This document shows, piece after piece, positions 1 through 59,357 of a stretch of 64,000 bases of DNA. This stretch comes from Octopus vulgaris (Eukaryota): positions 102,052,001-102,116,000 of the forward strand of contig OX597821.1 in NCBI GenBank assembly GCA_951406725.2, in the 5' to 3' direction. The notes beneath the pieces are model-generated. The model was given only the letters and a program-made list of their open reading frames with translations, searched no databases and was not told the origin of the DNA. How positions within the stretch are numbered: the stretch's first letter is position 1; each line of letters opens with the position of its first letter. The position numbers and the translations under genes are program-made.

Positions 1-2065
1 TTCACATATGGACGCATATATAGATATCGGTGTTGGTCTGAGTGCGTTAATATTAATATTACGTCCGTGTATGTAGATACATATGAGCGCATACATGTTG
101 ATATATGTTTATTCATGTCAGTAATATATATGGGAGTGAATTAGTCAATGAGAGAAAGAGAGAGGAATGCTATTTTTCTGGGCCTCCGATACTGGTGAGA
201 GGAAATAAAATAGCCTCAAACTGGAGGTTTGATTTGTATGTCTGTGGTAGAGTGGATTCTGCTTGAAGCATCCAGACTAGTTTTTGAAATGCCTTCTTTT
301 CAGTTCTATACGAGGATATCATTAGTAGACAAGCTTAGAAATCTCTGTATGAAGAGATTTCGGTAACACAAGTAATACAAATTGAAGTTGTTCGACTATG
401 TAATGAGAATACCATCCTTTAACTATAGAGCGTTGGCATTCCGCCAAGACGTCCGTCACCCCAGACTACGTGGGAGATCACCGAAGCAGTGGACCTCTCA
501 CATAGATCCTCGAAGACACAAATTTATCGCTTGCAACAGGGGAAAGGAGAACATCTGATCGTAAGGTCAAGGTGACGAAAGACGAGGCGTAGAGAATGGC
601 TAAGAGGGTGGGCAGGAGGCTATCCACCCCGGGCGACATTTTTAAAGGGACGGAACAGTTGGGTCTGCTATAGAAGCCTGTAGAAGTAGTCGGGGACAAA
701 CTCAAGGATTGCTCCGGGCGGCACACACACAAACTACATCACTGATGAGGCGCGCTGCAGTTCGGGTTGCCTCTGTGTATGTCTGTCTTGTAACGGGAAA
801 CTACAAATGAACACCCACAAAAACCATATATATTATTATTTGTTATCGCTTCACTTGATAACATTTAGTTCGATAACTAGCAACCAAAGTTGCTTCAAGT
901 CTTATACTTCCTGTGAAATAAGAAAAACGTTAAATGTTACCAAAAGAATAGTAGAAACGCATAAAGTTGAGAAAGAGTGGTAGTATGAATTAACGAAGGA
1001 TTCACAAATATGTTTATGTGATGTCATCCCCTATGTTTTCTCAGCCTTCAGTCTCTCTCTCTCTTTCTTTTTTTAAATTTTTTTATCTGGAATAGTGGAA
1101 TGGGGAGAAAGACAAAGTTAGAAAGAGGGAGGCGAATGTTGGTTATTGTGCGCTGGTTTGAAAACTGAATAACACATTCAAATAGACAGATATTTGCAAG
1201 TTCTGTCTTGAGTGAACCCTGAAATCAAGCTAAATATCCAAGAATCAAAAGAAAAAAATCTTGTCCCCAAAAATAGAACCTCCTTCGATACAATAAAAAT
1301 ATATGTAAATAACAGCAACAAAGACAATTGCGTACACTGATAGCTTGAAAACATGAAAAACAGTGTCACTCTAGGCTGTTCTTAGTATAGTTACGGACAC
1401 CATCAGTCAGATAAAATGATCATTATATTAAACACAGACGTCACCTTAGAAAAAGTCAAAATTATCAAAATACTTGGTAACAGTGATTTCCCATTGTAAT
1501 ATGTATATATGTATGTGTGTAAGTATGTATGTATGTATGTATATGTATGTATGTATGTACGTGTGCATATATAAATTGTAAAGACCCTCTTTGGTCATGA
1601 ATGACCATGGGATTGCATCTAACTGGTAACCAGCCAAACAAAGATATTACAGTAAGTCTGGCTTCCCTCATCAAGACAGGATTGACAAATGCCGGATTTA
1701 TTGTAATATCTTCATGTGACTGGTTAACGGTTACATACCCATACCTTTTTGTTCAATTCATCTGCAAATTATGATTACTACGTAATTCTAGACTTCTTGA
1801 AACAGCTGTTGAGAAATATGTTAAGAAACTGCATATTCAATTCTATATTTTTTGTGTCCCATGTAAATACATTTACATCAAGTCTATCTGTGTTTATCTC
1901 CATTACTATCTCAATACCTGCTCGATTTGGATTTTTCGTATAGCCATTCTTGACACTGCGGGCGTGGACAAATAATTCGGAGTTTAAGCTCATATCCTTT
2001 TGAGCACCACTATGTGTTTTCTAAACCGAGCAAACCCAGCTTTCAACTATTGTCTGCCTGTATAT

Positions 2066-2475
2066 CTTTTATCTTTTACTTGTTTCAGTGATTAACGGAG
2101 GTCATGAAGAATTTTAGTTCAATGAATTGATCCCAATATTTACTTTTTTAAAGGCTGGTACTTATTCTATCGGTATCTTTTTACGAACTGCTAAGTTACA
2201 GAGACGTGAATAAACCAGCATTGGTTGACAAGCAGTGGTGGGGAAAAATAGACACACGCATTCCACACAGATACACACAAGCATACATACATGCACCCAT
2301 ACGCGTGCATGTGTGTGTGTGTGTGTGTGTGATTACGACGAGCTTCTTTTGGTCTCTGTCAACCAAATCCATTCACAAGGCTTTGGTCGGCACGAGGCTA
2401 TGGTAGAAGACTGTTGCCGAAAGTGCCTCACGGCGTGACTGAATCCAGAACCGTATGGGTGGGAAGCAAACTTTA
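2066..2475 (-). mobile_element. tRNA-derived SINE with internal CA/GT microsatellite
   Basis: Shares the blocks ...CTAAGTTAC...ACCAAATCCA.TCACAAGGCTTTGGTCGG...GTAGAAGAC...GACTGAA with many other copies in the window. Confidence 0.8.
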
Positions 2476-2653
2476 TATCTTTATATGTGTGTGTGTGTGT
2501 GGTATAATTTAGTTTTTTCGTTGTTGAATTGATAAAAGGTGTTTTTTTTTCTAATTAATATATATATATTATATTTTGTGAAATTTGATTTAGTATTTCT
2601 AAACTGAATTTTTCCCTGTAAGTTTGGAATAATATTCCCTAATATTATATATA

Positions 2654-2705
<52 letters not shown>

Positions 2706-3445
2706 AGTCGATCTGTATCAACATAATGTAGTAAAGTGTTCCCTTGAAGAACTGTTGTGGATCTGCATCCAACTACACTATGGACAGCCACTGCAGCGAA
2801 TGCAAATAGCTAGAATAGCGAAACGTACGTTAGTGATCGAATGGTATAAACTGCATCATGTGCTTATCATACTTTTTCACGTACTCACATATTCTTCGTC
2901 TGAGCTATTCCATCTTCTTGGATTGTATCATTTTCCTGAGCTATAATATGATGTTATTTCGCTTGTGCACATGCGCTACAAAAAATGCACAGAAAGTTAA
3001 TTATTTTGCACTCACCCATACTTACAAACACATATTTTTGCATCCTTATGCATTTGTGTCCCGTGTATAAACAAGGGCAGTATATGCAATAAAATTTCAA
3101 TCATTTTTCTACATTCGTACAGTTGACCTTACAACCTAATGTGTTTACAGTCCGGCTTGTAAATCACAGTCTTAATACACTACTCAGACTTTTGTGTTTA
3201 AAAAAAATTTTTGAACATAGCATTCGTTCGGAATGCAATAGAAGTCAACTGCATCTTATAAAGAAGTCACATAGCCAGTATGACACATTATATAACTAAT
3301 GCCTGAACTTTCTCCCTCCCTCTTCTTCTGTATGTATCTCTCTCTCTTCCTCCCTCCCTTTCCACACATTCTCATACATGCACTAACGGATTAATCTCGT
3401 ACATACACACTTATATGCATCATACATACCTGCTTGCATACATAA

Positions 3446-3476
<31 letters not shown>

Positions 3477-4913
3477 CATACATATGTACGTACGTACATA
3501 CGTACATACATACATATGTGAATGTTGGCATATATGTGCGTGCGCATGTTTCTATGTATCGTTTTCATTCTCAGCATTCTTATTCGCCCATTAGTCTACA
3601 GAAGTCACACACTCGCACATATGGAGAATATTATCCTGGCTTTAGGTTTCGGTTGTATCTGTCAAAACAAGTAGAGTAGAAAGTCAAATGCAAAAGTTCA
3701 TTTTACAGGTCATATCCAGCATAGCTGTACGATCGTGAATTCTTGTAATAACAGAAAAAGGGTCAACTGTATATTAAGGGAGATTACTCTGATTCGACAC
3801 TAAACTTATTTCCAAACAATACTTTTTCAAATTGAAATGCAACTTGTAACTTTCTTTTGTTCAATACTTTTTCGATTTAGTTAAGTTTATGTTTAGTGCC
3901 ATGTTGAATTATAGAAATAGGTTTTAATTTTATTCCTGTTTAGTTTAATCCTTGGATTAAAAGAGATTCAATATTTCTAGTTAGCATTTTAATGGTCTGA
4001 ACATTACATATATTAACATTAACATAAGCATTGCTTTCTTTTTATGTGAATGGTATCTTCAGACTAGTAACTGCTTGAACAACTATCTTTTCTTTCACCA
4101 ATTAAATGTTCTATCGTGTACATTTAACAATTCTTTCAATACTTCTTCGGCATTCATGTTGAACGTCATGCTTCACTGAGGAGGTCGGAAATCCCTGAAA
4201 CATGTCCGAAGATGTCTTCCTTACTTACAGGAAAAAATGAAAATAATACTCGTCACTGCTTAATTTTGTTTTCTTTGACTTTACTCTTCAGAAATTTATT
4301 TCTTGTTGACTCTTTTTTAAAAATAAATATGCATTAAATTATCTAAAACCTTCAATGAATAAAGAAGGGAAAATATTCACTAGAGATGTATTGAATAAAT
4401 CATTATGGAAATATACGGGGAAGAAGTTGTTCTTTTCTTTCTTTCTTTTTCTTTTTACAATTTGAATTATTAACTCGTGCTTAAATAATTAATATATTGT
4501 GAGAAAACATATGATCCGTGTAGTATTGGTCGTCTGAAACAGTGTGATTTCGTTTCTGTACCTCTGCTGGATGCGCGCGCGCACTCACAGACGTGTCCGT
4601 TTATATGTATGTATGTGTGTGTGTGTGTTCTGTATTTAACCATTTAAATTCTTCCTCTGAAGAGCTGGTTTCTAATAAAGATACAAAGCTCAATCTTTGG
4701 AATGTGGACAACAAAAACAATGCTACGAGAAACATCTTGCATAGTTTTACTGTTCCGCTTACAGATTGTATTTGCAATGTGCGAATCAGTTGATCCCTTT
4801 TTTCTGGAAATCCAAGCTTATCCAGATTGACAGTAAAGCATTTACTTACAAAACCAAATGCACCAATTATTTATTGGCATAAATGTAAATTTGTAATCCG
4901 GATATAGAAGATG

Positions 4914-5134
4914 GTATGTATGTATGTATGTATGTATGTATGTATGTATGTATGTATGTATGTATGTATGTATGTATGTATGTGTGTATGTGTGTATGTG
5001 TGTACGCATGTATGTACGTACGTATGTATGTATGTACGTACGTACGTATGTACCTACGTATGTATGTACGTACGTACGTACGTGTGTGTGTGTATATGTA
5101 TGAATGTATGTATATATATGTGTATATATTATAT

Positions 5135-5183
<49 letters not shown>
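4914..5183. repeat. Compound (TATG)n/(TACG)n/(TA)n microsatellite
   Basis: Directly visible. It produces the spurious YVCM-repeat ORFs. Confidence 0.95.
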
Positions 5184-5539
5184 CGAAAGGGTTTTATAGC
5201 GACGTATTTTAATAAATGAATTATCAATTAAAAAAAAAGTGAACGAAATAACATTGGCAATGGACCAACTTCAACTGTTGCAATTTTATAATATGAGAAG
5301 CCATTCGGGTATCGAAATTTCTCTATGGGAGTTCAAAGAAGTAATGTAAACCATAAAATGAATGTAAAGGAGAATTTTTTTTTAATTGCCAAAGAAATTG
5401 TAAGACTATTATGAAAGAAAGATCATAACTTCTCGTGTGAATATGAACAAGAGCTTTTTAACAGAACTGGCAAGTTCGTCGGAGGAAAAAAAGCAACAGA
5501 ATTCTTGTATCATTAACACACGACTGCATACGCACTTAC

Positions 5540-6580
5540 ACACACATACATACACACTTACACGGTCTCCCTCTCACTCTAATATATAATTCTCTCTTTC
5601 TCTCTCATACACACACATACAGACACTTCCCCTCTGAAACTACCATACACACGCGTGCATGTACACTTACATTCACACTCACCCTCTCTTACGCTTTCTC
5701 TCTCTCTCTCTCTCTCTCACAAACACAGCTATCACTTATCCCCCCACTCTCTCACACACACTACTGCGCTCTCTCACACACTCCCTGTTCTCCCTTATTC
5801 TCATACCCTATCCTCATCTCTCTCTCTCCCTTTCGCTGTCTGTCTCTCACTCTCTGTTTCCCACACTGACAAATGTCTACTAAAATGTGTGCTAAAAGTT
5901 AACTTCAGTGCGTTTATAAGAGATAAAAATGGACAAACTATTGTAATGAAACATAATTTCTGTTAGTTCTATGAATTGTGTGTCAGTTCAGTCTCTTAGC
6001 GAGTTGATATTAGTGTTTGCGTCTCTCATTTTTCTGGCCCAGTTCATTTGTCTCACACTCTATTTCTCCCTCACTTAGACTTGTTGTCGTTTTCTCTCTG
6101 TATCTCCCACCTCTCCCTCACTTTCCTTCTCTCTCTCTGTCTCATTCCCTTTCTCTCTTCCTCTTTACCATGTCACTTTGTCACTTTCTTGCCATTTTTT
6201 CATGCCTTCTCTTTCCCTCACTTTCTCTTTCTCTCTCTCTTACTTACTTTCACATCTGTTCCATTGTTTCATTCTCTTACTCTGATGTGATGACTCTTGT
6301 CACAAAATGGGAACATTTAGTTCTGTATATGTTTACAGTCAATAAACAAAACAAAAATAACCGTCTGCAATCAGATTTGACAGAAAACATTCCGGGACAA
6401 ATAGAAACTGAAAGGTGAAGAGAATGTTGGCATTGATGGTAATGATGATGATGAGGTGATGAGATGATGGTTATGCTGTTATTGGTGGTGTTCGTGGTGA
6501 TGGTGACGAAGACGCTGACGACGATAATGATGATGATGACCACGACGACAATGATGACGAAGACAACGACGACGAGGAGG
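5540..6580. repeat. Low-complexity CT/CA-rich tracts and a (GAT/GAC)n tract
   Basis: Directly visible pyrimidine-rich runs and trinucleotide repeats at 6435-6580. Confidence 0.85.
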
Positions 6581-7217
6581 CGATAGTGTTTGCTTTGCTC
6601 AGTTCTAATTTTTGAAAGGCTGTTGAAAGCATAACTCTATAACATATTTCATTTAGTTATAGATTTCGATTGTGTCTCTAATTTCATTTTCTTGTTAAGG
6701 TTTTTAAAAAAATTTTAACACTTGAATGACTATCACAATAATAATAATAATTGAAACAGGGTTGCTATTAAATATTACTCCCCACGACTGAGAGTAAAAT
6801 ATATACAGTCAAAATAGGTAATTGATGTATAACTTCAACCGGCATTTTATTTTCATCGGTAAACCCAAAAATCTGATACGAAAAATAATTGCAGCTTTAG
6901 ACAATTTCTCAATTCAAATGTTGGGAACGCTGCTCCATTTGGTCGCACGAACTGTTAGAAATAATAACCAAATTGCTCTCGAATTATGTCCTAGAGAAAG
7001 GATACATTAGATAATGTGGAGCATGGTTTTAAAGAACTAGGTTATGGTTTGAACACCTTTGAACATAAGTGAGGAAATGAAGAATAGAAGAAAAAATATA
7101 TACCATCTTTTTATGTATAATAATTAGCTTTGTGTATTCATTCACTGACATACTAAAGAGCTAAGAAAGAGGCTGTCATAACAAATAGTCATAGAAGTAA
7201 AATGAATGCGAGTAGAA

Positions 7218-7426
7218 GGCGATCTTTTGGTACAAGTACCATAACAGCCAATTATAAACCCACGTAGGTTTATTTACATTTCTGAAGAAAAAAGAAACCC
7301 TTTTCCCCCACCCCTAATCCTAACCTCACATATTTAAAAAAAAAGAACTTTACGGAAACTTTACGATCTTCTTCAAATGTAAACAAACAGACTTGGCAGT
7401 TATGGTACTTGTACCGAAAGATTGCC
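7218..7426. mobile_element. MITE with about 34-bp terminal inverted repeats
   Basis: GGCGATCTTTTGGTACAAGTACCATAACAGCCAA ... TTGGCAGTTATGGTACTTGTACCGAAAGATTGCC. Confidence 0.75.
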
Positions 7427-9424
7427 CATCAATTTTCCTACAGCCTTCTTATCTGACTTGTTAACTGAAAGGAAAAGTTGCATTCCTGTATTTCAGAATT
7501 TAACTAAATACTACAAAGAAATTTATCAGTCACTACTTTGCTGCCACTCTTCAGAGAATATAAGTAGGAATAAACGTCAACCCCATGAGAAATTTATAAT
7601 ATATTGCAAAATACCAATAAATATGCGAGTAAATGTAGAAGAGGGTGAATAACTGCAAAAGCATCAAGCCATTAATCCACTTATATTTATTAGCTTTGTG
7701 TATTTTATCCACTGTTGAGCTAAAGAGATAATATGTGTAAGTAGGACACTGTTGAAGCACAAATAGAGAGTGAGCGATCAGAGAAGTAAAATGAGTATGA
7801 GTGGAAGGATGATGTGTTTATTATGCCAATACAGAAAAGCAAACAGGGAAACAATAAGTGAGAGAATTGAAATAAGAGTAAATTAGAATAAGATACGTAA
7901 CAAGAAGGGGCAGCTAATTGACAACTGTACTTTCATTGCGAAAAAATTGCTGTCGTGTCATTTATAAGATTAAAACAGGATAGCAGGAGTTATCTCCCTT
8001 ATATTTAGCATGTCATTCTTTGTTTCGTTTGTCCTTCTGAAAGTATACTAATATAGCGTGCATATATTTGTAAACATCACAATAAAAAGGAATTTTGATT
8101 TTTCTATTGTAAAACACTTCCTATAATTAATCAGACTGCCATTCATATTTAATGATATAAGTACACTAGTAAATATATTTTCTATTCATTGAACTGTAAG
8201 CTAAACATAGTTTTTTTTTTATTAATACATCACTGAGGTTAGATATGGCCTTATGCTTGAAGACAACATGTTAACATATTTAATGCAGTGAGCATCAAAA
8301 ATCTAGTTAGAATTACTGAAATACTTATGTATTGATAGAAGACAACAAAAGCCCCAAGTCTAATAGTCTTATATTCTTCAGTCTTTGAGCTAACGCATTT
8401 CCACACTGCTTATATAATTTTAATTAAGATATCTGTATATCTATATATGTATACATACATATATATAAATGTATATAATATATATCAATTAAAGAAAAAC
8501 CACTATTATGTAATTCAAACAATGCTAGATATAAACTATATCATATAGAAAAAATAAAATATATTATAAAACATATATCTAGATCACAAGAAAAGAACAA
8601 AAAAATGAATAAACATTATATACTATGATATGGTTTATGTCTATCAAAGTTTGAATTACATAATAGTGGTTTTTCTCTAATTTATATATACATTATATAT
8701 TTATATTGTGAAATTTGATTTAATACTAAATTGAATTTTTCCCTGTAAGTTTGGAGTTATACTCCCTATTATTACTATTATTATTATTATTATTATTATA
8801 AATGTATGTTTGTATATATGTATATTAGCACTAACCTAACTATTATCTTTAAAGACTAAAAAGTTTTAAGAAAAAGGTAAAGGGGAGAGGTAAGCAAAAT
8901 TTCTTTCAAATCATGTCGTTACTATTTAGGGTTAGATCAGCACTGATAGAAAATATGTCAAAAACATTTCAGCCATTAGAACTCTTACTTGTATTGGATT
9001 TGGGGGAAACTCAACTGCTTTTCCAGGTCAAGTGAATATATAGAACATTTCTTGTTGGCTCATTTCAACTCAGTCTCTGGAATTTTTTTTTTAACATAAA
9101 TATAAGCAAAAATATAATTCATAAAGTGGAAAAAAACAAACAAATAAATGAAGTCATGAATACTGACTTCATTTCTTTCACCCCATTCACTGCTATATGT
9201 TTGACAGCACAAGGAAGAGCTTTGTTTCCAACCAGTCAACTGCAGGGAATATGGTTGTTAAAAGAATGTTCAGCACCTGTAACATGACAGCAGCTCATAT
9301 TTATCAAGAGAAAATCTCCTTAAAACACATTTCCTTTTCTTTTTTGTTCTCTCTCTCTCCCCTCCTTCCTCTTGCTTTCACACACATGTGTTTGTGTGTG
9401 TGTGCATGCATGGACGTTAAATGA

Positions 9425-9483
<59 letters not shown>

Positions 9484-9789
9484 TATAAGATATACAGATA
9501 TGCATAGTTACATATATTTATTGTTAGAGCATGAGGAATGGAAATTTGTACATGCATACAATTGTATGCATATGCTTATTTGTGTGCACATGTGCATGTG
9601 TATCTAAAATGGGGATGAACACCATTCCTCCATGTGATTGGTTTGAAAAATTGTTATGATATTAATATAGTTTTGTTTTTCTTGACATTGAAACCAATGG
9701 TAGCCTAAATTCACAAATAAAGGTATGTATGTATATACATGCCAGCATAAAAAACAACTATTAAATGCTGCTGATGATGATATATATAC

Positions 9790-10390
9790 ATATATATTAT
9801 CACCAGTTTACCTCCGTTTCCCATGCTGGCATGCATTAGCTGGTTTGACAGGAGCTGGCCAGTTGAAGAGATATCTGGATTCCATCTGTTTTGGCATGAT
9901 TTCTACAGCTGGATGTCCTTCCTAACACCAGCCGCTTCACAGAGTGTACTGGATGCCTTTATGCAACACCAGCATGGATGCTTTTTACATGGCACCAGCA
10001 TCCATGAGTCCACAAGATTCGGATTGGTCAGCGGAAGAGGGATGCAGGGACCACGATTTTACTTAGCTTGACATGATATATGAATATATATACATGCCAG
10101 TGGCATGTAAAAAGCATCCAGTACACTGGCAGTTTGACATGGAGCGGGCATGGTTTCTACAGCTGGATGCCCTTCCTAGCACTAACCACTTAACAGTGTG
10201 CTGGATGCTTTTTACATGCCACTGCCTTGGATTGGACAGTTTAACAGGATCTGATGGTCTGAAAGACTGCATCATACTCCAAAGTCTGCTTTGGCCTGCT
10301 ATCTACAGCTGGATACCCTTCCTAACATCCACTTCTTTACAAAGTGTACTGGGTGCTTTTATAGTGACACCAACATGTCAACCTGTAGCT
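9790..10390 (-). mobile_element. Cluster of RTE-type 3'-end fragments
   Basis: Three repeats of CTACAGCTGGATG/ACC.TTCCTA. The same motif occurs at 15398-15630, 28545-28715, 36290-36880, 38110-38305 and 63705-64000. Confidence 0.75.
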
Positions 10391-10638
10391 TGCAAGATTA
10401 AGATCCCTTTCGACTTTAAATGAGTGGAGCTACAATAAAGTGGGAGGCAATTTTATGGCAGGTAATAATAGGTTAGAGGTAAAGGTAAGGGCTGGAGAGT
10501 AGCTGCATGGCTATTCACAAATTTACAAGAGTGGGTAGGAGCAATCGGGGGTGGGGGCGGGGCTGGAGAGATAAAGAGGGTAGTGAAAACATAGTTTTGG
10601 GTTTAGTGCCACTGTAACCACAACTGAATACACACGTT

Positions 10639-10705
<67 letters not shown>

Positions 10706-10721
10706 CACATACATATATATA

Positions 10722-10932
10722 AATGTGACCGCGTATGTATAGTTGGCGATTTTTTTCTCCGTCTTCCCTTCCTTGGATCTTTCCTTTTCCTATGTTTCTG
10801 ACAAAGAGCTCCGCTCGAAACGTTAAATTCTCCTTCTTTCTTTCCTTTCCTGAGCGTCCAATAACACTATACTTGTTCCACGTCCTCGCATTGTTGTGTT
10901 TTCTCTTTGTGTTTTCATGTTTGGATTAACAT

Positions 10933-10935
<3 letters not shown>
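10722..10935 (+). mobile_element. Short (TA)n-embedded repeat with decayed hammerhead-like motif (Penelope-like terminal repeat)
   Basis: CTGACAA-A-GAGC(tcc)GCTC-GAAA-CGTTA at 10798-10825, with (TA)n on both sides. A related copy lies at 16000-16170. Confidence 0.5.
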
Positions 10936-10992
<57 letters not shown>

Positions 10993-11595
10993 GTGTGTGT
11001 GTATTTGCATACATACATATGTACATAGATATATGAATATACATATATGTAAAATATGTATACGTACATATCTACATGTATATATATGTATGTATGTGCG
11101 TGTTTATATAAAGACAGATAGATCTGCAGACTGGTGCCCTCACCTCACGGATCTTGTTTCCTTATAACTGTCTGTAAAATACATGATTTTTTAATATTTT
11201 GCAGTGATACGTTTTCCAGAGTGTGGATTACAATTATGCTGGTAAAATTTATTAAAAAAAAATTTCTTTGGAAGAATTTCTGTTCGTTCTTCCCTTCTCC
11301 TGCCCCAACTTTGTTACCCCTAATTTTCGTAACTCTAGTATTTTTATATATGGTTTAAATATCAATATGTAATCTACACTCACGAAAGCGTATTTCTGCA
11401 AAATGTAATTTGAAAATAGATTTTAAAGAAAGTTATTTTGAAACTAACTTGGGAGAGTGTCTCGAAACTCCTTCGAAGAATTTTTTTTATGTCATTAGAA
11501 CAATCGTAATCTACACCATCGAAAAAGTACCCCTGCTTAGTTTCGTTAAAAATATGCGTTTTTCAAAAAGTTATACAGAAACAAATTTGTGGGGC

Positions 11596-12172
<577 letters not shown>

Positions 12173-12859
12173 AAATTCAAATTTGAAAGACTGTCAGTGT
12201 ACCATAAAAACACCTCGGGAGATAACTCTTCATTTTTTCTTCTTTTTTTTCTGAAAAGGAAGTGTTTTTTTTCACTTTCGTCTGAAATCTCAAATGAAAT
12301 TACATTCGACCTATTCCCCGTAGTTTTAAAGGAAAGCAAATATAATAAATTGTATTTAAAATAAGCGTTAATTTTAAGGCATGGATTTACTTGTAAATAT
12401 AATGATAGTTGACGATGCCTGTTTGTAAAACATGTAATTCATAGGAAGAAAATAATTGCCATAATTGTCATTAGAATTGTGTGTATATATACTTTTCTGT
12501 TGTTTAGTTACATTATAGTCAAACATACAGACACAGTACAACTATATACTAGGAAATTACTTAATTGTTTTAGCAAGCAAAGAAGTCGCCCAAGTTTTTT
12601 TTTTTCTTTTAGTAACAAACGAGAAGTACACGTGAGTGTATATATGTAATTAAGAAAATAGAGGCGTATTACTTGTGTGAATATTAAGTGGTGTTTTTTT
12701 TTTTTTGTATAATTGCTGTGGTGCGTACCTATGTGTTGAACTAATTTAAGTCGGCATGTCCGTCTTAATTGCTCATCCCGCTACTCTTTTTGGCGCTGAC
12801 ATTATAAGTGCTGCTCCTGAAGACTTTGTAAAGAACTAGCCAACAACACAGCCTCTATG

Positions 12860-13045
12860 TAGTCGCTGAAAATGCTAAACATAGCAGCTAAATCTAACTC
12901 AAATCACACCCTCCATGCCATCTTAAAAATAAAGGGACGCATAGAGTAATATAGTTGTTCCTGATTTACCAAAATAGAGTACGGTCATGACTGGAATGTT
13001 TTTGAGTATAGATTTGCTCGATCCAGTTTGACCTGGAGCTAAATT
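12860..13045 (+). repeat. Unclassified dispersed repeat
   Basis: CTCAAATCACACCCT...TCTTAAA...ATGACTGGAA...GACCTGGAGCTAAA recurs inverted at about 13690-14010 and 54960-55190. Confidence 0.55.
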
Positions 13046-14749
13046 CACGATGACTTTGTTAAGAAGTACTGAAATAAAAACGATCTTTGTTTTAAATCAG
13101 TACCTACAAGATGGAAGGTTTAATGAATGTTTGTATGATATACTAATAACACTGCTTTCTGCAATCATTGTTATCGCAATGTTTGTTTTTGCATATCATC
13201 ACCCCACCCTCACTACGGCTACCGTCATCATGACGATTATCAAGAAATATATAACAAGAGTTGCTCCAAATGAACCCGGTTTGCAAATCGTTGTTAGACC
13301 TGTTTTACGTCAGTGCAAAGAAGTACAAGAAAAAAAAAGAACATGGAAAGACTTGCAAAAGAAAGAGTTGATTAGTGAATATATATTGTGTATAACATTA
13401 AAACATGATCTTACTAAAATAAATTAAAGAAAAATGCTTGTAATTCAAAGACACACACACACACACACACATATATATATGCACACACGCGTGTGTGTGT
13501 GTGTGTATATATATACATCTGTTAAAGAGAAAGCGAGGAGAGATTGAGGTTGACGGATAGAAGCAGCGAAAGAACTGAGTGCAAGTAGACTTTCGGTGGT
13601 TCGCTTTTTGGTTCGTTTGACTTTATGGCCTTGACAAAGGCAAACGTCACAACTTTCCATTTCTTCCCCCACTCCTCTCCCCAGTAACTGAGTGATGGTT
13701 GTTTTATTAGTCCCAACCTAGGTCCGTTCTGATCTAACAGAAATATATGATCAAAGCACCCGGCCATGGTAATCCTATTTTATTTTCGGACAAAGTATCA
13801 AGGATTCCATTATCCAATGTATCCTTTCTCTTATAATATGGTTCAGTCTAGTTTCAGAATAACATGACTGTTATTTCTAGCAGGTCTTTTCTCACTTACT
13901 TTCTTTCTCTTTGTATGCATCCTTCATTTATAACATAAAGTGTAATTTCAGAGGAATGTGACTATTATTTCTAGCGGATCAGGCGACCACGTAGCGGCTC
14001 CTTTAGTGGGTTTTGAGGGTGTGGAGGAAAAACATATTTATTTTAGGTTACACATGTAATATTTTTCTGTAATTTTATTTTTAACTCTTTTGTCAAAAAC
14101 TAACCAGATAACAGAGCAGTGGGAGAAAAAGAAAGATGTGGGGAAAGAGATGAGAGGGTATGAGTAACAGGAAGATAGGGTGAGAGAGGTTAGAAAGAAA
14201 GAGAGAGAATGAAGGGGAGAAAAAAAAAAGCGTGTGAGTCGAAAATATTAAGAGAAAGAAAGGATGAGTGAATGAGAAAGAAAATGGGGAGGGAGTGAGA
14301 AAAGAGCATGTAAGTCAACACTATGGGAGAAAGAGTAAGAGGTAGACAGAGTAAGCGGTAAACGGAATAAGAGGTCAACCGTAAGACATACAAAGAGTGT
14401 GAGTGATAGTAAGAGTAACAATGCATGCACAGAGAAAAATATACGTATTAAAAAGTCAATAGAAAAAATTCATATCACACGTTCTACATAACACAGCGTA
14501 AAATAGTCACTAGCAAAAATATTGAGACACAATTATACATGAATAGAACAAATTCATTTGCAAACATGCTTGCCGCCTTCGTTGAGTGAAGAAAATATAT
14601 AAAATAAGTTTATGACTGAATTAGGTACATGTTGCATAGTGTGATGAAAGTCAGGTCAAAAGACATTTTGTCCAGCAACCTTGTAATATACCATGGAACA
14701 GACAGGCATGTTTATATATATTTATATATATATATATATGTATGTATAT

Positions 14750-15070
14750 ATGCGTGGCTCTTTGGGCAAGTGTCTTCAACTATAGCCTCGGGCCGAACAA
14801 AGCTTTGTGAGTGGATTTAGTAGACGGAAACTGAAAGAAGTCCGTCGTGTGTGTGTGTGATGTGTTTGCGTCTTAGGATGTTCCCCACCACTGCTTGACA
14901 GCCGGTGTTGTATTTACATCCCAGTAACTTAGCTGTTCGGCACAAATGACTGATGCAATAAAAGTACCTTGCTTAAAAAAAATTAAGTACAGTGTTCGAT
15001 TCATTCGACTAAAAATTCTGCAAGGCAGTGCCCCCAGCATGTCCTCAGTCTAATGACTGAAACAAATAAT
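14750..15070 (+). mobile_element. SINE, same family as 2066-2475
   Basis: TTGGGCAAGTGTCTTC...GTGAGTGGATTT.GTAGACGGAAACTGAAAGAAG...TGACTGAAACAA. Confidence 0.8.
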
Positions 15071-15072
15071 AG

Positions 15073-15130
<58 letters not shown>

Positions 15131-15654
15131 TACGTATATATAAAAAGCAATGTGTGACTTGTTGGTCACGCTGGTGTAGGGAAACTAAAACAACAAACAA
15201 TGGGAATGATTGTTTGTCAGAGACTCCTAATGCTAGCAAAGATTAGCAAGAAGTTTTGCTCTGAAGTAGTTGTGGAAATTTCTACCCTACATTATGTTTC
15301 CTTCAACAATTTAACGCACACACATACATTTAAATATATATGCAATTAAATATTACCTGTTTTTTTTTTAATATTGCTCATGTAAATTTACATATATCAT
15401 TATCATCATCGTTTAACGTCCGCTTTCCATGCTAGCATGGGTTGGACGATTTGACTGAGGACTGGCGAACCACATGGCTGCACCAGGCTCCGATCTGATC
15501 TGGCAGAGTTTCTACAGCTGGATGCCCTTCCTAACGCCAACCACTCCGAGAGTGAAGTGGATGCTTTTACGTGCCACCGGCACAAGGGCCAGTCAGTCGG
15601 TACTGACAATGGCCACGCTCAAGTGGTGTTTTATATATATATATATATATATTA

Positions 15655-15970
15655 TTTTATTTGTTTCAGTCATTGAACTGTGGCCATGCTGGAGCACTGC
15701 ATTTTGTTGAATAAATCAACCCCAGGACTTATTCTTTGTAAGCTCAGTACTTACTCTATTGGTCTCTTTTGCCGAACCACTAAGTTATGGAGACGTATAT
15801 ACACCAAGATCGGTTGTCAAGCGATGGTGGGGGGGGGGGGACAAACACAGACACATACAAACACACACAAGGCTATAGTAGAAGACACTTGCCCAAAATG
15901 CCACACAGTGAAACTGAACCTGGAACCATGTGGTTGGTAAGCAAGCTACTTACCACATAGCCACTCCTCG
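15655..15970 (-). mobile_element. SINE, same family as 2066-2475
   Basis: TTGTTTCAGTCATT...GCCGAACC.CTAAGTTA...GAAGACACTTGCCCAA...AACCATGTGGTTGG. Confidence 0.8.
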
Positions 15971-16439
15971 CCATGCTTAACTGCTAAATCTACAAGTTCT
16001 TTTTCATTCTCTCTCTCTTTATTTCATGTTATTCCTTTCTGTTGAAGAGCATAGGTTCGAAATGTAAAAGGCATTTTCATTTTCCTAAGCATCAAACTAA
16101 TACACCTGTTTGTTGTTCATACACCTGTCTTCATCTTTTGTTTTTCTATAAATTTCTACTATATATATATAGTAGAAATTTATTATTCACTCTATTCCCT
16201 AAATTTGGATTTTTATTTACTTTATACAGCAACCCCAGTTCCTAACTGTGAACTATAAAATAACTTTTTTCAGCTTATCAAACTTTGATATGAGAAAAAT
16301 TTACAACCTTCTATGTCAATAAACCACTATTGTTCCTGAAAGTTGGTTTTTATACCTACTACGGACTGCTTGAAGCTTACTAACTTCCTACACCTTGATC
16401 CTAGGATCTTTCATATTACTATATATATATATATAAATG

Positions 16440-17230
16440 TGTGTTATCATCTCATTTCTGAGGTTTAATCTTCCTTAGTCTCCTTCTTCTACTTGTTCCT
16501 TCCAAATGGCTCTCCTTGCCAGCACATTCATCTCTCTTGCATCCTTTTATACCCAGTGTTTTCTCTCAGCCACTCTGTACCACATCATTCATACATACTC
16601 ACAGTGCACATGCAACAGCGCATGCTTGGTTCTTTACTTTCCAACTTTTTATACATTCTCTACACACAGCCCCCATATCTCACTACCATGCAACATTGCA
16701 CTTTATGCACAAACAATATAAAATTCATCCTTTGCTCAGAGAGAGAATCCTCTTGTTGTCAACAGTGGTAATAGTTCCCTGAACATTTTCCATCCTCTTT
16801 TTATTCAGTCTACCGGTATACTTTCAGAACACTTTTTATTGCTAAAGAGGTTTCCTAGGTTATAAAAGTTATCTACTACTTCCATACATTCTTGTAAATG
16901 TTATAAAGAGTTTTGTATTACAAACAAATCTTGTGCTTCTACAAAAATATTTTATTCACTGTCAACCACTACTGCTCTTGTTCATCCACAAATCACATTC
17001 AGATCATTGTATGGAATTACTACCCAATCCTTTTTCTGCATCCTGAGCACAATAATCTCCCTGATGGCATCAGAGTTCTGCCTTCTTTCCCTATTTACAA
17101 AAATTTTAGTCTTTGCTATGTTTACATTGAGGCATCCTCTTTATTCAAGAGTTTGTCAAAAATTTCTCTCAATCTTTTAAATAATCTCTACTATGAGGAC
17201 TGGGTTATCAGAATAAATGATTTCTGTTGC
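16440..17230 (-). mobile_element. Decayed RTE LINE fragment
   Basis: Reverse complement resembles 43500-43900 (ATGTTGCATGGTAGTGAGATATGG vs ATGCTACATGGCAGTGAAACATGG). Confidence 0.6.
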
Positions 17231-17716
17231 AGCAAGATTTGAAACTGAATCGACAAATTGCCAAGTAAAAATCATAGCCTTTTCATCTGATCAACCAAGT
17301 TATGGAACAATCAGCATTGAGACATGACGTGATGCATCTTTCTAGAGACTGCAAGAACGTCCTTTTGCAAAGCTTTTAAATGGGCATGTTTTGAGCACCA
17401 AAGTTCAGTTAGTGGCTGCCTGCAGCTAAGCTAACCACATGCTCATTTTGCTGCTTTTGACAGTCATTCTCATGAGTCTTTACTCAACCTAGACAGCAGC
17501 TTACCGTTTGTAGACATGAACACACATTGTGACACCATAAGCAACCAGTCTCAAATTCCTGTCATTGTTTGGTGATCTATAATAATTAAAGTAGGCTGAG
17601 ATCTGAGTTTTGGGGTACACTTACACCCTAACTTTAATTTACCCATTGTCAATTTTTACTGTACGTGTCTTACACCACTCTCATAAGCTATTCATCCACT
17701 AGTTTCCTTAATGACC

Positions 17717-17892
17717 GAGCTGGCTGAATCGTTTGCCGCTACGTTCCGAGTTCAAATTCCGCCGAGGTCGACTTTGCCTTTCATCCTTTCGAGGTCGATT
17801 AATTAAGTACCAGTTACGCACTGGGGTCGATGTAATCGACTTAATCCCTTTGTCCCCTCTATGTTTAGCCTCTTCTGGTCAATAAAGAAATA
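17717..17892 (+). mobile_element. Young tRNA-derived SINE with 16-bp TSD
   Basis: B-box-like GAGTTCAAATTCC and AATAAAGAAATA tail. Flanked by AGTTTCCTTAATGACC at 17701-17716 and 17893-17908. Confidence 0.85.
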
Positions 17893-20134
17893 AGTTTCCT
17901 TAATGACCAATAGACTACAGAATATTAAATGCTGGGATAGAAAGACTTAACTAAAAACTTGTCTAGTAGTTGTTTTACTATGAAGAGAGCATCGGTTGCA
18001 CTCCAACCTGACACGAATCCAAACTGCATCTGGCTGGATTCTCTTGCAAATCAATTGTATGAAGACAGTATTCCTTTAATTTCTTAGTCTATCAGTTTGA
18101 TACTTCTTGTAGATGTTCTTTCTCAAGCATCTCTTTTGCATTTGTAGTAGTTGATGATTAATCGGTCACGCTTGTCATTAATAACGACACCTCACTGTAT
18201 TATTTGGTTCAGAACATGGAGATATATACACAGCAAACATACACAATAACGTATAGATGCATTTGTATGTACACATGCGCACATATATACATATATATGT
18301 GATATACATATACACGCATAATATCTATCTGTCCATCCATATATATATATACATGACTGGCATTTGTATAAAACCTTTACTGTCGATTAAACGCCAACGA
18401 AATTTAATATCGATTAAAACGCTTTTAGACGTGGTCTTTTATGTCAAAACTCCTCGCAACACAAAACGGAGAAGGACTCTATAATCAGTGTTGGGTCGTC
18501 TTATTTGGATTAATCGTAGAAAGAGAGAGAGAGAGAGAGAGAGAGAATGAGAGGGGGAGGAGAATGCGAGAGAAAGTGAGAAGGAGGAGAGATATTGGTG
18601 TCAGTGAGAGATTAAGCCATATCAACTGTAATGTCCCACAGCACATTCCACAATATATATATATATATATACATATATTTATGTGTGTGTGTGTTTGTTT
18701 ATGTCAAGCTTATATATAAAAACAGTTGAACATCAAAGCGAAGGATTGTTCAATACTTTTTAGTAGAGTATAGTATAAATTTTTACAAAGAAAATATTCC
18801 TAGGAAGCCGAAACTTCAAAATCACTTTCGACCTTTTTCCTTGAAAAAATTCACACACACACACACATACATGTACCATCACCATGTACGAACAGCAGAT
18901 ATGAAATGAGATGTCGAAATAATAACAATAATAATAATATGGTCATGTAATATATGTGTTACATGTAGACACATGAAAAGAATCTACACGTGTACACCTC
19001 ACACACACACACACACTAGAGTGAGGGGGGAGTGTTAATAGCAAGATATTTAAAATATTCATGAAAAGAAGCAATGAAATTTATATATGTATATATGAAA
19101 TTTATATATATATATATATTTATTCAATGCATATGTAACTATACATGAATATTGAAGTAAGCACTTATGCATATGCATCAAAACGTGTGTATTTATATTT
19201 TTATAGTAATGCTAAACATGTATTTTAGCGTATCCATATCTATGTTCATTTATTTGTATGTATATTGAGTATTGTGGAAGTGTATTTGTAAGTAAAGCCC
19301 GTATATTTGTATATTAACTAATATTAAATAATGATAAAGTGGAAACGTCTTGTGTACGTGTGTGCAAGATCACTGGCTGTTTTATAACATTATATATTCC
19401 CTTATTTAAATAATAAAATTACTACTTCCTGTTTTTGCCATTTCGAAATCAGCTGTACGTAGATTTCACTACTATGGCAATAGAGAGAGAGAGAGAGTGA
19501 GAGTGTGTGTGTGTGTGTTTAAGACTAAAATTTAAGAAACCGAGCGAAGTTCTGAAATATATTGTCTTAAACCAACTGTAAGAATACATGTAACACCAAT
19601 TCTAGCTCAATGTCTAACTTAGATAGGCATTGTTGTTGGAAATTACCTACTCTTATTAACAAGTTCAAATGTAGCTTATCTTGTTATGTTGTTGAGATTT
19701 AAAAAATCCCCTTAAATTTAGAAATTATTCCTTAATGAATAAAAAAAATTAATGAAATTATATAAGACTTGCACTGGGACACATCGGCTGCATAGCAATA
19801 ATAATAGTAATAATGATATTATTGTTCTTGGTAAAATTGGAAAAAAATATTGTAATAAGCAAACTGTGTGTATATATATATATATACACATATATGTTGT
19901 ATGTGTAAGTATTGAAGTATTAGGTTTGATATAAAAATTGGTTATAATAGTAATATAAAAAAATTATCCGTCTATGGTAGCAAACCGATATTAGTGTGAA
20001 TTAAATATACAGTAGCAGGAGAAGTCGGATTCTATGTCCGCCGACCATGTCGGCATCAACTCATTGCGTGATAGCGACCACGACGATGGTGCTTATGGTG
20101 ATGATGATAATGTTGATGATGAGAGAACGATATG

Positions 20135-20323: not shown

Positions 20324-20364
20324 ATGGTAATGCATGCAAGGAAACTTCCAAGACTCAATGATGG
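20324..20364 (+). CDS. WAC: WAC orthologue (WW domain-containing adaptor with coiled-coil), coding exon 1
   Basis: Reads MVMHARKLPRLND(G) and ends GG|GTACAA (41 nt, phase 2). Closely matches the vertebrate WAC N-terminus MVMYARKQQRLSDG as recalled. Lies just downstream of a YY1/ETS/CRE promoter. Confidence 0.9.
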
Positions 20365-42621: not shown

Positions 42622-44565
42622 CAGGTTTAAGATCATGGAGAGGGTCATAGCCCAACTAATTAGGGAGAGAGTCAGTTTGGATGAGATGCAGTTTGGTTTT
42701 GTGCAAGGGAAAAGCACCACTGATGCTATATTTCTGGTTAGACAGCTGCAGGAGAAATACCTAGCCAAAGATAAGCCCCTATACCTGGCTTCTGTTGACA
42801 TGGAGAAAGCCTTTGACAGGGTCCTCCGATCCCTTATCTGGTGGTCAATGAGGAAACTAGGGATAGATGAATGGTTAGTGAGAGCCATGCAAGCTATGTA
42901 CAGGGATGCTGTCAGGAAGGTGAGGGTTGGCAACGAGTACAGTGAAGAATTTCGGGTAGAGGTAGGGGTCCACCAAGGTTCAGTCCTCATCCCCCTTCTA
43001 TTTATCATAGTCCTCCAGGCAATAATGGAGGAATTCAAGACAGGATGCCCCTGGGAGCTCCTTTATGCTGATGACCTTGCTCTAATTGTTGAATTACTAA
43101 CAGAACTAGAGATGTTTCAAGTGTGGAAACAAGGATTAGAATCGAAGGGCCTTAGAATGAACTAGCTAAAACCAAAGTCCTAACGAGTAGGAAGGCAGGC
43201 AAACCACAAATCTCTTCAGGTAGATGGCCCTGCTCGATCTGTAGAAAAGGCGTAGGTAGAAACTCTATAAGATGTACCCAGTGTAATCTATGGACACATA
43301 AAGTGCAGCAATATCAAAGGAAAGCTAACTGGGAGGATAGTTTTCGTATGTGGTAGATGCTCGGGAGCTATAAATAACACTGAAAATGTGCAGAGAACAA
43401 CTTCCGCCACATTCCAGGGAGAAAAAGTAGTAATAGCTGATAGCTTCCATTACCTAGGTGACCAAGTCAGTAGCGGGGGAGGGTGCGCTGAAAGTGTAGC
43501 TGCTAGAATAAGAATAGCCTAGGCTAAGTTCAGAGAGCTCTTACCTCTGCTGGTGACAAAGGACCTCTCGCTCAGAGTAAAAGGTAGACTGTACGATGCA
43601 TGTGTACGAACAGCCATGCTACATGGCAGTGAAACATGGGCCGTGACTGCTGAGGACATGCGTAAACTGGCAAGGAATGAAGCCAGCATGCTCTGATGGA
43701 TGTATAATGTCAGTGTGCATACTTGACAGTGTGTTAGTGCCCTGAGAGAATGGTTGGACCTAAGAAGCATCAGATGTGGTGTGCAAGAGAGACAACTGCG
43801 CTGGTATGGTCATGTGGCGAGAATAGATGTGGGTAGCTGTGTGAAAAAGTGCCACACCCTAGCAGTTGAGGGAACCTGTTGAAGAGGTAGACCCACGAGG
43901 TGGTGAAGCATGACCTTCAAACATTGGGCCTCACCGAGGCAATGACTAGTGACCGGGACCTCAGGAAATATGCTGTGCTTCAGAAGACTCGGCAAGTGCA
44001 AGTGTGACCATAACCTTGTGGCCTATGCTAGGGGTGTAACCAGTCCACTTATGCATGCCTTTTCTTCATTGGACACTAAACTCTGCTTGCAAAGACCAGT
44101 TGAGGCAAGTGAAATCGAAGTTGAAATAAAATTCGGTCGGTGCTAGTGGAGCGCTAAGAGTACCATACGAATGAGATCATTGCCAGAGCAACAAGCTGGC
44201 TTTCGTGCCGATGGTATGTTAAACACACCATTCGAGTGTGATCATTACCATGTCGCCTTAGTAGCACTTGTGCTGGTGGCATGTGAAACATTCGAGCGAG
44301 GTTGTCGCCAGTGCTGCTGGACTGGCTCCTGTGCAGGTGGCACATATAAAGCACCATTTGGGCGTGGTCGCTGCCAGTACCACCAAACTGGCCCTCGTGC
44401 CGGTGGCATGTAAAAGCACCCACTACACTCTCGGAGTGGTTGGCATTAGGAAGGGCATCGAGCTGTAGAAACTGCCACATCAGATTGGAGTCTCGTTCGC
44501 CAGACCTCAGTCAAATCGTCCAACCCATGCTAGCATGGAAAGCAGACGTTAAATGATGATGATGA
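42622..44565 (+). mobile_element. 5'-truncated RTE-clade LINE (RT domain with frameshifts/stops, long 3' region ending in (GAT)n)
   Basis: ORF 42635-43165 has RT motifs QFGF, DMEKAFDRV, GVHQGSVL.P.LF and LLYADD. Downstream come FHYLG, CVRTAMLHGSETW and QLRWYGHV, then tandem GTGCCGGTGGCAC subrepeats and a GATGATGAT tail. Confidence 0.92.
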
Positions 44566-44689: not shown

Positions 44690-45215
44690 ATCATTGTTTT
44701 AATGTTCACTTTTCTATGCTCGCATAGGTCAGATTGAATTTATTGAGTTAGATTTTCTTTAGCCAGATGCCCTTCTTGTCGCCAACCCTCACCTGTTTCC
44801 AAGCAAAGAATTTCCTTTCTATAGCCAGACATATTTACACAGAAGATTGGCAACAACACTGCTTATTTGATGATGGAACTTGTTTGCAACTATTGTGCTA
44901 TGTCAAGATGTAGAAGCACACAATCGCACACACATACACATATGATGGGCTTCTTTCAGTTCCCATCTGCCAAATCCACTCAAGTCTTTGTCATCTTTCG
45001 GGATTTTACGGGACGGACCGCGTCGCCGTATCGAGCGCGTGCATCTTGTGAACGCCTTCCGGCATCGCTGGCGGCTACGTCCACGCGTACGTGGGCCATG
45101 ACGCGAGGTTGGCCCAAGGTAATTATAGAAGACACTTGCCCAAGGTACCATACAGTAGGGACTGAACTTGAAACCATATGGTCTGGAAGGAAACTTCTTA
45201 GCCACACAGCCATAC
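44690..45215 (-). mobile_element. SINE interrupted by a 117-bp GC-rich insert
   Basis: Family sequence AAATCCACTC..CTTTG|GTTGGCCC..AGAAGACACTTGCCCAAGGT is split at 44990/45108. Related copies lie at 32100-32560 (-) and 33955-34370 (+). Confidence 0.75.
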
Positions 45216-48200
45216 TAGGCCAGTCCATAAAATATTTGATGGAGTCTTTAAAATTGACTATACCTTATTCCAGCATGAGCACTGTCCAGTGTCTGAAACT
45301 AGTATAGTTTTGTATTTTTCAATGTCATCATGAGTTGATAAGTGGTATATTTCTCGTGTCTAAGTTTGTGTTTAGTTGGCCTTGACAAGAAAAGCTGCCA
45401 GTTTTATTCTACATTCCCCTTAGCTGTGAATTGTTCAAATTATCTTCATTCTTGCACACAGGTTACCAAAATAATTGTCAGAATATAAGGATTTGATAAT
45501 AGGTAGTACATGTTTACAAAAAGAATTTATTGGTTATAGTTATATATTTTTTGAAGATTATAAAGTTCCTTATAAAATGTATTTTTAAAGGTGTTATTAA
45601 TAGGGTTTTCTCAGTAATTTATTAAAGCCTCATCTACCTATAATTATCTTATACCATTTACTAATTCCACTCTTAGATCAAAGCAAGAGTAGTTTATCTA
45701 AATTTCTATAAATTTCATGTACGTTATCAATGATTTTATTTTCTCCCTCTTTTTTCCTCCTTAAAGTACATTAGTCTCAGTACTTACAAGAACTATTTCA
45801 TATTTTTTAATCATTATCACAACAGCTGTTCTGAAAATTTTTCTGTTTGGCATTTGACTTGTCAGTCATACATTTCATATTTGTATCCATTTATCAGAAA
45901 AAAGAAATTTCATTAGATTAGTTTCATTTATCAGCTTCAAAATTTAAATATGTTGGTGTAGCTATATCTATTAAGATTTTAACTGTTCATTTTAACGGGT
46001 CTGATAACTAGTTCTTTTGATCTTTTAACACAAATTTAAAATGAACTATTTAACAAATACGCAAATTTGTTGGGTAACTTGTGATTGAAAGGACATATAA
46101 ATATTGGTGTTTTTAAAAACAAAACCCAGGATAATACAAATAAAGAATATGTGATTAATTTGTGAGTCACCTCATTGATGCTTCAGCAGGAATAGATTAT
46201 TTACATCATCATCCCTATACCAGTTATAGAATTTTGAGGCTAATTTAGATATTTGACCATAACATATTGTAAGTGGTCATTGTACTGTAGTTTTGGTAAA
46301 ATGTCTTATGTTAGCATGTTTCACTTAAAATACATAAACACACAAATATTGTTGATTAGGACATTAGATCTTCATAAAAATTTTCCTTTCAATTATCAGA
46401 AATTTATACCTACTAATTGAGTAAAATCTAAATGTAAAAATGTGAATAATGGAGTAATAATCTACAAAGCATTTCATAATTTAATTTGAAACGACAATTC
46501 TGATGAGTTAATTCACATTTAGATTATTATGAATGCCTTGAATAATAAAATACATAAGTATGTTATTGAAATGAAAAGAGGTTATTACTTTAGATCTGAG
46601 TACCATTCTCTGTTACGAATTTATGATTTAATATATGATCTATTAAATGAGAAAATGATATTTAATACAAGAGAATTGTTTTCTAATGCATTCCACCAAA
46701 GAAATAAATATTATATTGAATGGTAGGTAGGTTAACAAGTACTGATGAGAATGAAATGGTATGTTTAGTAAAGGTTGGCAACAATAGTAATTGTAAATTT
46801 GTGGTGTCAGCATGTCTGATGGTGATGAGTAGAAAAAAAAGTGAAGCATCAAGCTAACAGACTCTTAACTACATTCCATCAAGCAGCCTATGAAATCCGA
46901 AATATCATTTTTTTTGTTTACTTCTCATTTATTATTGTCAAATTTTTTTCTTACTCATTTGTTATTGTTAAAATATTTTTCCAACTTAATATGCATAGCA
47001 AATTATGTGGATTTACTATCAAAGACAAATTGTAAGGTTGCTTATTGTAAACATTTCTGATTTTGAAAATTATCCTTGTATCAGTATTGCTCCCTAAATA
47101 TGTTGTGTTTTATACTTAAACTATTGAAAATTGTCAGTTATGCTTGAATTTTTCATGTGTAACATTTGTTATTAACATAACAAATGGTTTTCATCATCAT
47201 TATCTTTTTCCATATGGTTGTGGGTTGGACTGGTCTTCGCTACCTTATCATTTTGCCTCTTATTGCTTTTCTTTTTCTTTGTCAGGTTCAGCATCCTGAA
47301 CTTTTTCTTCATTCACTACTTCTGCCCTTATCTTCCTTGACCCTTCTCTTCCACACCTTCCTTTCACTTGGATCACCTGGGACTCCTTTACTCAACTATG
47401 AAAAATCCATATTCATTACTAGACTGTACTAATACAATCTTCTCTTTTTTATCTTTTTATATTTTACTTGTTCATTGATTCTGGGGCACCATCTTGTTTA
47501 GTCAAACAAATGGACACCAGTATTTATTTTCAAGCTTGGTACTTATTCAATTGGTCTCTTTATGTTGCACTGCTAAGTTAAGGGGGCATAAACAAACCAA
47601 CACCAATTGTCAAGTGGTGATGGAATGCAAACATGCACGCGCATACGGCAGGTTTCCGCACAGTTTCTATCTACCATATCCACTCTCATTACATAGCCAG
47701 TAGAGCATACTTCCTTTCTTTCCAGCCTTTGCTCATCTACACTCACTACTGCTGTCACAAAATTGCAACATTGCACTTATGTTCTTTGCTTGAAGAAACA
47801 ATCCCTTTGGTAATAGATCTCTGAATTTACCTCGCACCCTCTTAGTTTGGCTACTACTGTCTGTCAGCACATTTCTCTATGGCTGGTTAGGTCACAGAAA
47901 CTATCAGTTACTTCTCTGGAGCCATTTTGAGGGCTGGAAAGTATTTATTTCATTGGTACTCTAACTGCTAGTAACTCCTATACATGTCACATGCAGAGCC
48001 TCTTTTATCTGGCAACCTGGTAGACCTGAATGTACACCCTTAGTAATATGTATGCAGTTCCTATCTGTTCTTTTTCTCCATATTTCTCAATTGGAGGTTT
48101 TGTTTCCACATCTGGGATTTCATCTAATTATTTCACAGATTCAGTTATAAGTACTGGATCATCAACTCCTCTTTTATGGCCTGGAGAACTTTAGTAAACA

Positions 48201-58292: not shown

Positions 58293-59357
58293 TTTATTTC
58301 ATTTCATTTGAGTTTGAGTCCATGCTCAGGCCAAGTCGAAGACTCCACCCTCAGAGTCTGGTGTGGTTGCCAGGTTGTATTCTCTGTTTAATTTTGACTT
58401 GTGTAGGAGCGAGTTTGAGTCAGTTTGTGCTCGTTGTGTATATTCTGGGAGATGGGGTTCATCTCTAATGGTGCTTAAGTATCTATCCAGCTGCAATTTG
58501 AATGATTCCACACTGCATCCTGATAGATTTCTGACATGTACCGGAATGGAGTTGAATAGTTGTGCTCCTTGAACCAACAGACTTGACTCTCGCAGGGTTT
58601 TTGCTGCCTGGCCAGCCTTTTTGTTGATTGGTGGTAGCTGGCAGCGTCTTCCGTGGCGCAGTGAGTGGTAGGTTTTGATACCAAAGTTTGGCACCTTTTG
58701 CTCTATCATTTTCCAAATGTATATAATTCGGTATCGCTCAAATCTTCTTTCTATTGAGTACATCTTCAAGGTTTTGAGTCTTTTGCTAATAGTCCAGGTC
58801 CCTCGTTTCTGAGAAGTATGAGGTAAAATTTCTTTGGAGCGATTCCATCTTAGATAGTTGGCCCTTTGTTGTTGGTGACCACAACTGAGAACTAGTCAAT
58901 CCTCGGAAGTATCATACTGTTCCAGAGGGTTTTCATTGTTGAGGTATCTCTTGATTTGAAGGTGCACAAGATCCACCTGCTGTACTTTCTTGCAGTAAGA
59001 CAGACTGAGTCAAGGTGTTCTCTGAATTTTAGGCTGGTTCCCATGTGGATGCCTAAATCTTTCACATACTGTTTTTCCATTATTTGTTGTCCTGATGGGT
59101 TTCTGTAGTTTGTTGTATTTTTCAGATCTTGATCTGTTCCGTAGCGAATTAGTTCAAACTTCTTATCATTGAACAACATGTTGTTTGTTTCCTGCCATTT
59201 ATATATGGTGGTCAGGTCCTTTTGTAAGGTCTCTGTATCCATCTCGTCTTTGATTTGTCTCATGACCCTGGTGTCATCAGCAAAGGATGAGACGTTGCTG
59301 GTTGTATCTTCATCTATGTCAGAGATGAGGATGAGAAACAGGATTGGGCCGAGTATT
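58293..59357 (-). mobile_element. 5'-truncated CR1/L2-group non-LTR retrotransposon (RT C-terminal half and 3' end)
   Basis: Minus strand reads LGPILFLILISDI...SFADDTRV, KDLG, YSIERRFERY and QLFNSIP..VRN....SFKLQLDRYL, then a short (AAATG)n-like tail. Few disruptions, so relatively young. Confidence 0.88.

Follow-up and report, generated by a model that had tools for sequence, protein, structure and literature searches.

The window, meaning the whole 64-kb stretch of DNA analysed, contains a 117-bp GC-rich insert that interrupts an old SINE copy. The insert probably lies in an intron of a + strand WW-domain gene (Table 1). It is bracketed by an ATG exon and, 49 kb downstream, a WW-domain exon, which makes the intron setting proposed in the initial annotation probable. 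The two exons may belong to one gene, putatively WAC; a PDB search with the WW exon listed no protein named WAC among at least 40 WW matches. The CpG observed/expected ratio falls from 0.64 upstream of the gene (window positions 1–20000) to 0.21–0.27 within it (20366–64000). A drop of this kind at a gene start is the pattern expected of gene-body methylation, and on this ratio the gene body looks methylated. The intron also holds, on the minus strand at window positions 58329–59356, broken reverse-transcriptase-like frames with a FADD motif, and a second stretch of similar appearance lies at 42880–43120; we take both to be LINE fragments.

Table 1. Features of the insert, its host locus and its genomic relatives. 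Positions without a contig prefix are those of the window.
Feature	Position	Strand	Basis or remark
Short first coding exon of likely host gene, 41 bp (ATG, then GT donor)	20324..20364	+	
Left part of old SINE copy, 0 CpG	44935..44990	+	alignment to other window copies
4-bp microhomology (TTTG) of host SINE with donor at left junction	44987..44990	+	
rDNA intergenic-spacer subrepeat fragment, 117 bp	44991..45107	+	116/117 identity to five G000:C33 copies
Private T where donors have C of a CpG	45047..45047	+	C in 33/33 close donor copies
Right junction, one ambiguous G	45107..45112	+	donor goes on CTTGG, host GTTGG
Right part of same SINE copy, in register with left part, 0 CpG	45108..45215	+	alignment to window copies
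WW-domain exon	G000:C8:102145803-102145931	+	PF00397, E 1.9e-12
Spacer-subrepeat expansion, 59 kb, GC-rich	G000:C33:174706-234062 (L012:4706 to L018:4062)		
Isolated spacer piece, ~275 bp	L025:5448-5722 (G000:C23:41455448-41455722)		ends at TA-rich microsatellite
Isolated spacer piece, ~985 bp	L028:4225-5209 (G000:C7:59961225-59962209)		

Counting gave 63.2% GC and 20 CpG for the insert, in agreement with the earlier estimates of about 63% and about 20. Its CpG observed/expected ratio is 1.71, against 0.27 to the left and 0.21 to the right in the gene region, and the next CpG-richest 117-bp stretch of the window holds 12 CpG. No second copy was found by searching the window, as had been stated. 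The surroundings had also been described as AT-rich and nearly CpG-free. The first description suits the right 1 kb (29.9% GC, 4 CpG) but not particularly the left 1 kb (44.9% GC, 25 CpG). The two SINE halves contain no CpG. Both SINE halves match the other window copies at about 69–88%. Among seven such copies aligned, four (2330, 14870r, 34125r and 53420r) run uninterrupted through the site, the remaining three lacking the site region or differing there. A family consensus built from loose contig ends is likewise uninterrupted in four of four public sequencing runs. These contiguous copies uphold the original view that a SINE has been split, and from the SINE paralogues we infer an empty pre-insertion site. 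About 8 bases left of the junction the left half lacks 2 bp of family sequence; this gap may be older than the insertion.

At the left junction the donor reads GTTTG and the host CTTTG. Of the 33 close donor copies, 29 carry this shared TTTG, all five best ones among them; within the scanned 200 kb, a copy counts as close if its placement has no more than 9 mismatches. Among 200,000 simulated random host–donor joins, ambiguity of at least 4 bp arose in 0.97%. The microhomology is thus a modest signal, recognised after the fact, with a chance of ~2% for either of two junctions. It is clear at the left junction only, and the right join is near-blunt. A target-site duplication of at least 5 bp is absent, the one ambiguous G being the most that could be counted, and the sequence shows no poly(A) tract or tail at the insert, in line with the first description. 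Each exact junction motif occurs once in the 2.8-Gb assembly (227 contigs), and searching with these motifs revealed no further copy with the same ends or the same SINE–insert combination. That combination has therefore not spread, at least with unchanged junctions. Beyond either end of the match, each of the 33 close copies goes on into the same spacer sequence, which identifies the ends of the 117 bp as break points and not as element ends. A mobile element (MITE, SINE subfamily or composite SINE) was rejected on the single occurrence of each junction motif and the continuation of the 33 copies into spacer.

A search of the octopus assembly with the insert returned at least 91 matches on 11 contigs (best 40 of 241 candidates scored). 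Most fall in the array on contig C33, as do all of the five best, and among the 27 matches listed only the window itself reaches 100% identity. The many genomic copies that the initial annotation would have taken as the mark of an ordinary young transposon do exist, but they stem from rDNA spacer, not from a transposon. Within the tandem units on contig C20, ordered 28S end, subrepeats, 18S, 5.8S and 28S, the subrepeat lies between the 28S 3' end and the 18S 5' end. In one such unit the 28S ends at 24064095, the subrepeats span 24061766–24056856 and the 18S starts at 24054927. The same placement was seen in loci L019 and L026. Positions of rRNA in loci L021–L030 were obtained by blastn with this genome's own rRNA stretches. 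In 8 of the 10 fetched loci containing both repeat and rRNA, the repeat is antisense to rRNA throughout; in the other two (L018 and L024) the arrangement is rearranged. Canonical units transcribe their rRNA antisense to the + strand of the window. Given the position of the subrepeat on C20 and its antisense orientation in the eight loci, the insert is intergenic-spacer sequence of the host's own rDNA. Donor subrepeats measure about 190–215 bp and are organised in higher-order blocks.

The tandem rDNA units on C20 occupy 23.94–24.09 Mb on the minus strand, with 18S starts every ~18–24 kb. In L019 the 18S match is long, at about 2.5 kb. A second tandem repeat, with a period of ~140 bp, directly follows the 28S 3' end at L019:1086-2264 and in L021, L022, L027 and L028.

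Our view of C33 covers 100 kb of this 694-kb contig. On its left the array joins ordinary DNA abruptly. Near 232.6 kb it inverts before a shortened 18S, relative to which it is mostly inverted, and 18S, 5.8S and 28S (Rfam) lie directly beyond. It is ~10 times as long as the subrepeat region of the C20 units and looks like a spacer-derived satellite. Its composition (66% GC, 18.8 CpG per 117 bp) matches that of the insert. This expanded array is the one place where the best donor variant was seen; the copies on C20 and C1 show 4 or more differences from the insert. Such a satellite may have been the immediate donor, or else an rDNA variant collapsed in the assembly; the rearrangement of L018 and L024 and the occurrence of the best variant on C33 only suggest that the donor was perhaps a satellite and not a working rDNA unit.

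A recurring motif of the spacer is CAAGACTATA(T/G)T (L021, L022, L026, L019 and the C33 array). Counted by its core, it has 50 copies in the C33 array, mostly spaced 0.6–1.5 kb apart, and in two units its last copy stands ~2.86 kb before the 18S. It resembles an initiation site, and we take it to be a candidate polymerase I spacer promoter. Beyond these arrays, the two isolated spacer pieces on C23 and C7 have no rRNA match within their 10-kb surroundings and are possibly further patches. The first 300 bp of 18S gave at least 41 matches on 18 contigs (best 40 of 137 candidates scored). Taken with the isolated pieces, this shows frequent scattering of rDNA fragments through the genome.

Position 45047 alone separates the insert from its best donors, by a C-to-T change in a CpG. 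The insert keeps 20 of 21 donor CpGs, whereas none is left in the host SINE; it is therefore much younger than the SINE, and probably one decay event has taken place since insertion. To judge from the sequence, the private T is likely to reflect methyl-CpG decay after insertion, although it could be a consensus error. The single CpG transition and the CpGs retained inside a CpG-free SINE agree with the earlier proposal of a recent insertion of unrelated DNA at a break.

We consider it probable that a piece of rDNA spacer subrepeat was patched into the old SINE copy during double-strand break repair. A double-strand break within the SINE would have produced a host end finishing in TTTG, and this end could have paired with the same four bases in a spacer repeat, either on a free fragment or in a chromosomal array. 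From that repeat 117 bases would have been captured or copied, and end joining would then have linked the end to the other half of the SINE. Since then a single CpG would have decayed, in a gene body that is apparently methylated. We predict that the insert is neutral. One junction pair fits DNA and RNA templates alike, and with the same donor and break a LINE or R2-type enzyme, acting independently of its endonuclease, might have made the patch by reverse transcription of a spacer transcript. We regard this as unlikely. In its favour, the recurring motif is found 225 bp away from the best donor copies, upstream of them in the rRNA sense. Against it, subrepeats also occur in the interval from the last motif copy to the start of the 18S, and the motif is no more than a putative promoter. 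An RNA origin was argued for experimental insertions of a comparable class by Onozawa and Aplan 2016 (PMC5110952), but the octopus insert has neither tail nor duplication. A larger rDNA or element-borne insertion later deleted to 117 bp is very improbable. Large relocated rDNA blocks are common in the genome, which counts in its favour, yet no duplication and no other foreign bases are left, and divergence below 1% leaves little time for two events.

Another possibility is an assembly or library chimera, in which a high-copy spacer fragment was joined into the contig. Part of the window stretch is contained in 20 of 24 public runs, and four runs from four studies were aligned, three of organism A and one of organism B. 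All four contain the spacer repeat in abundance, which marks it as a native repeat; the very high copy number of the donor in these runs also favours a chimera. In tables swamped by the repeat, none of the 15 joints listed out of 155 is a 117-bp skip, and none of the 32 pieces listed out of ~44,500 bridges a junction. Such tables speak for neither presence nor absence of the insert, although the lack of a listed bridging piece would fit a chimera. The single-copy flanks have depths of 50.6, 9.8, 46.7 and 48.4 in these runs and the residual non-C depth at 45047 is 18.8, 0, 38.2 and 266.7, although non-C depth here could come from other decayed copies or from other bases. The zero in one run (X3, flank depth about 10) would fit a chimera. 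Against it, the SINE halves rejoin in register and with microhomology, there is no N in the window, and the site sits within a 119-Mb contig. The private CpG transition, seen in 0 of 33 donor copies, likewise argues against joining in the library or assembly, and does so as likely decay after insertion. Overall, we hold a chimera to be improbable. Foreign DNA (bacterial, viral, organellar or engineered) or a new structured mobile element, as first suggested, is barely credible. The contrast in composition, the one general point in its favour, is matched by the C33 array. Spacer copies of up to 116/117 identity in the octopus genome and deep coverage of the repeat in four of four public runs contradict a foreign origin, and the 99% host copies rule out this reading, barring a foreign origin of the spacer copies, which sit inside rDNA units. 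By blastn no match was found among 72,556 plasmid and 50,697 phage records. Rfam returned five matches up to E 10 for 44800–45300, all far below the gathering score. The strongest, CRISPR-DR23 (17.7 bits, gathering 45, E 1.2), could be cited for a new element, but folding of the two strands equals that of shuffled sequence (z 0.36 and 1.38, with equal or better folding in 128 and 190 of 200 shuffles), and the junction motifs are single-copy. The local pairings pointed out earlier thus lose their value as a sign of structure, and neither of the two open frames tested over the insert matched a Pfam family.

On the preferred reading, repair of a break with rDNA spacer, the insertion is real in the assembly and an ordinary kind of accident. 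The insert is no longer a candidate for horizontal transfer. As one likely neutral intronic patch it is of little importance alone, but it offers a clean natural example of rDNA spacer as break filler in an invertebrate. Set in a CpG-depleted intron, its 21 donor CpGs form a small clock for methylation-driven decay, and if the insertion is segregating it would serve as a presence/absence marker. A broader idea, which we strongly doubt, is that rDNA spacer is a recurrent patch donor in this genome, with pieces from 117 bp to 59 kb spread over the chromosomes, the smallest being RNA-templated, derived from spacer-promoter transcripts and still segregating. If true, fresh CpG-dense, polymerase I-type regulatory DNA would be dropped into methylated gene bodies by such patches.

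A literature search on octopus rDNA intergenic spacer, covering titles and the openings of abstracts with most subscription papers outside its scope, found nothing on this spacer. The donor resembles the spacer-derived satellites described for tomato (PMC2679016), C33 being a 59-kb subrepeat expansion beside damaged rRNA genes. Those satellites are arrays, whereas the window insert is one sub-monomer fragment. In yeast, the preprint PMC10802722 reports, at induced breaks, capture of rDNA, Ty and mitochondrial fragments, with rDNA in 2 of 8 wild-type insertions, and capture junctions with microhomology attributed to end joining. Those breaks were experimental; the octopus insert is natural, apparently germline, and located in an animal intron in one assembly. 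A class 1 insertion or LINE-made retrocopy was rejected, there being neither target-site duplication nor poly(A) tail. The closest likeness is to class 2 templated sequence insertions (TSIPs), of which the sections of Onozawa and Aplan 2016 (PMC5110952) on this class give human examples, as against octopus and a single assembly here. The donors named in those sections are LINE-1 pieces, cDNAs, intergenic or intronic sequence and mitochondrial sequence, rDNA spacer not being among them. As described there, a class 2 patch originates elsewhere in the same genome, at a distant locus, without target-site duplication or poly(A) and with junction microhomology, and the 117 bp fall within the experimental range of 73–414 bp. 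The octopus insert likewise has a distant genomic donor, no target-site duplication or poly(A), and end-joining marks of 4 bp on the left and 1 bp on the right.
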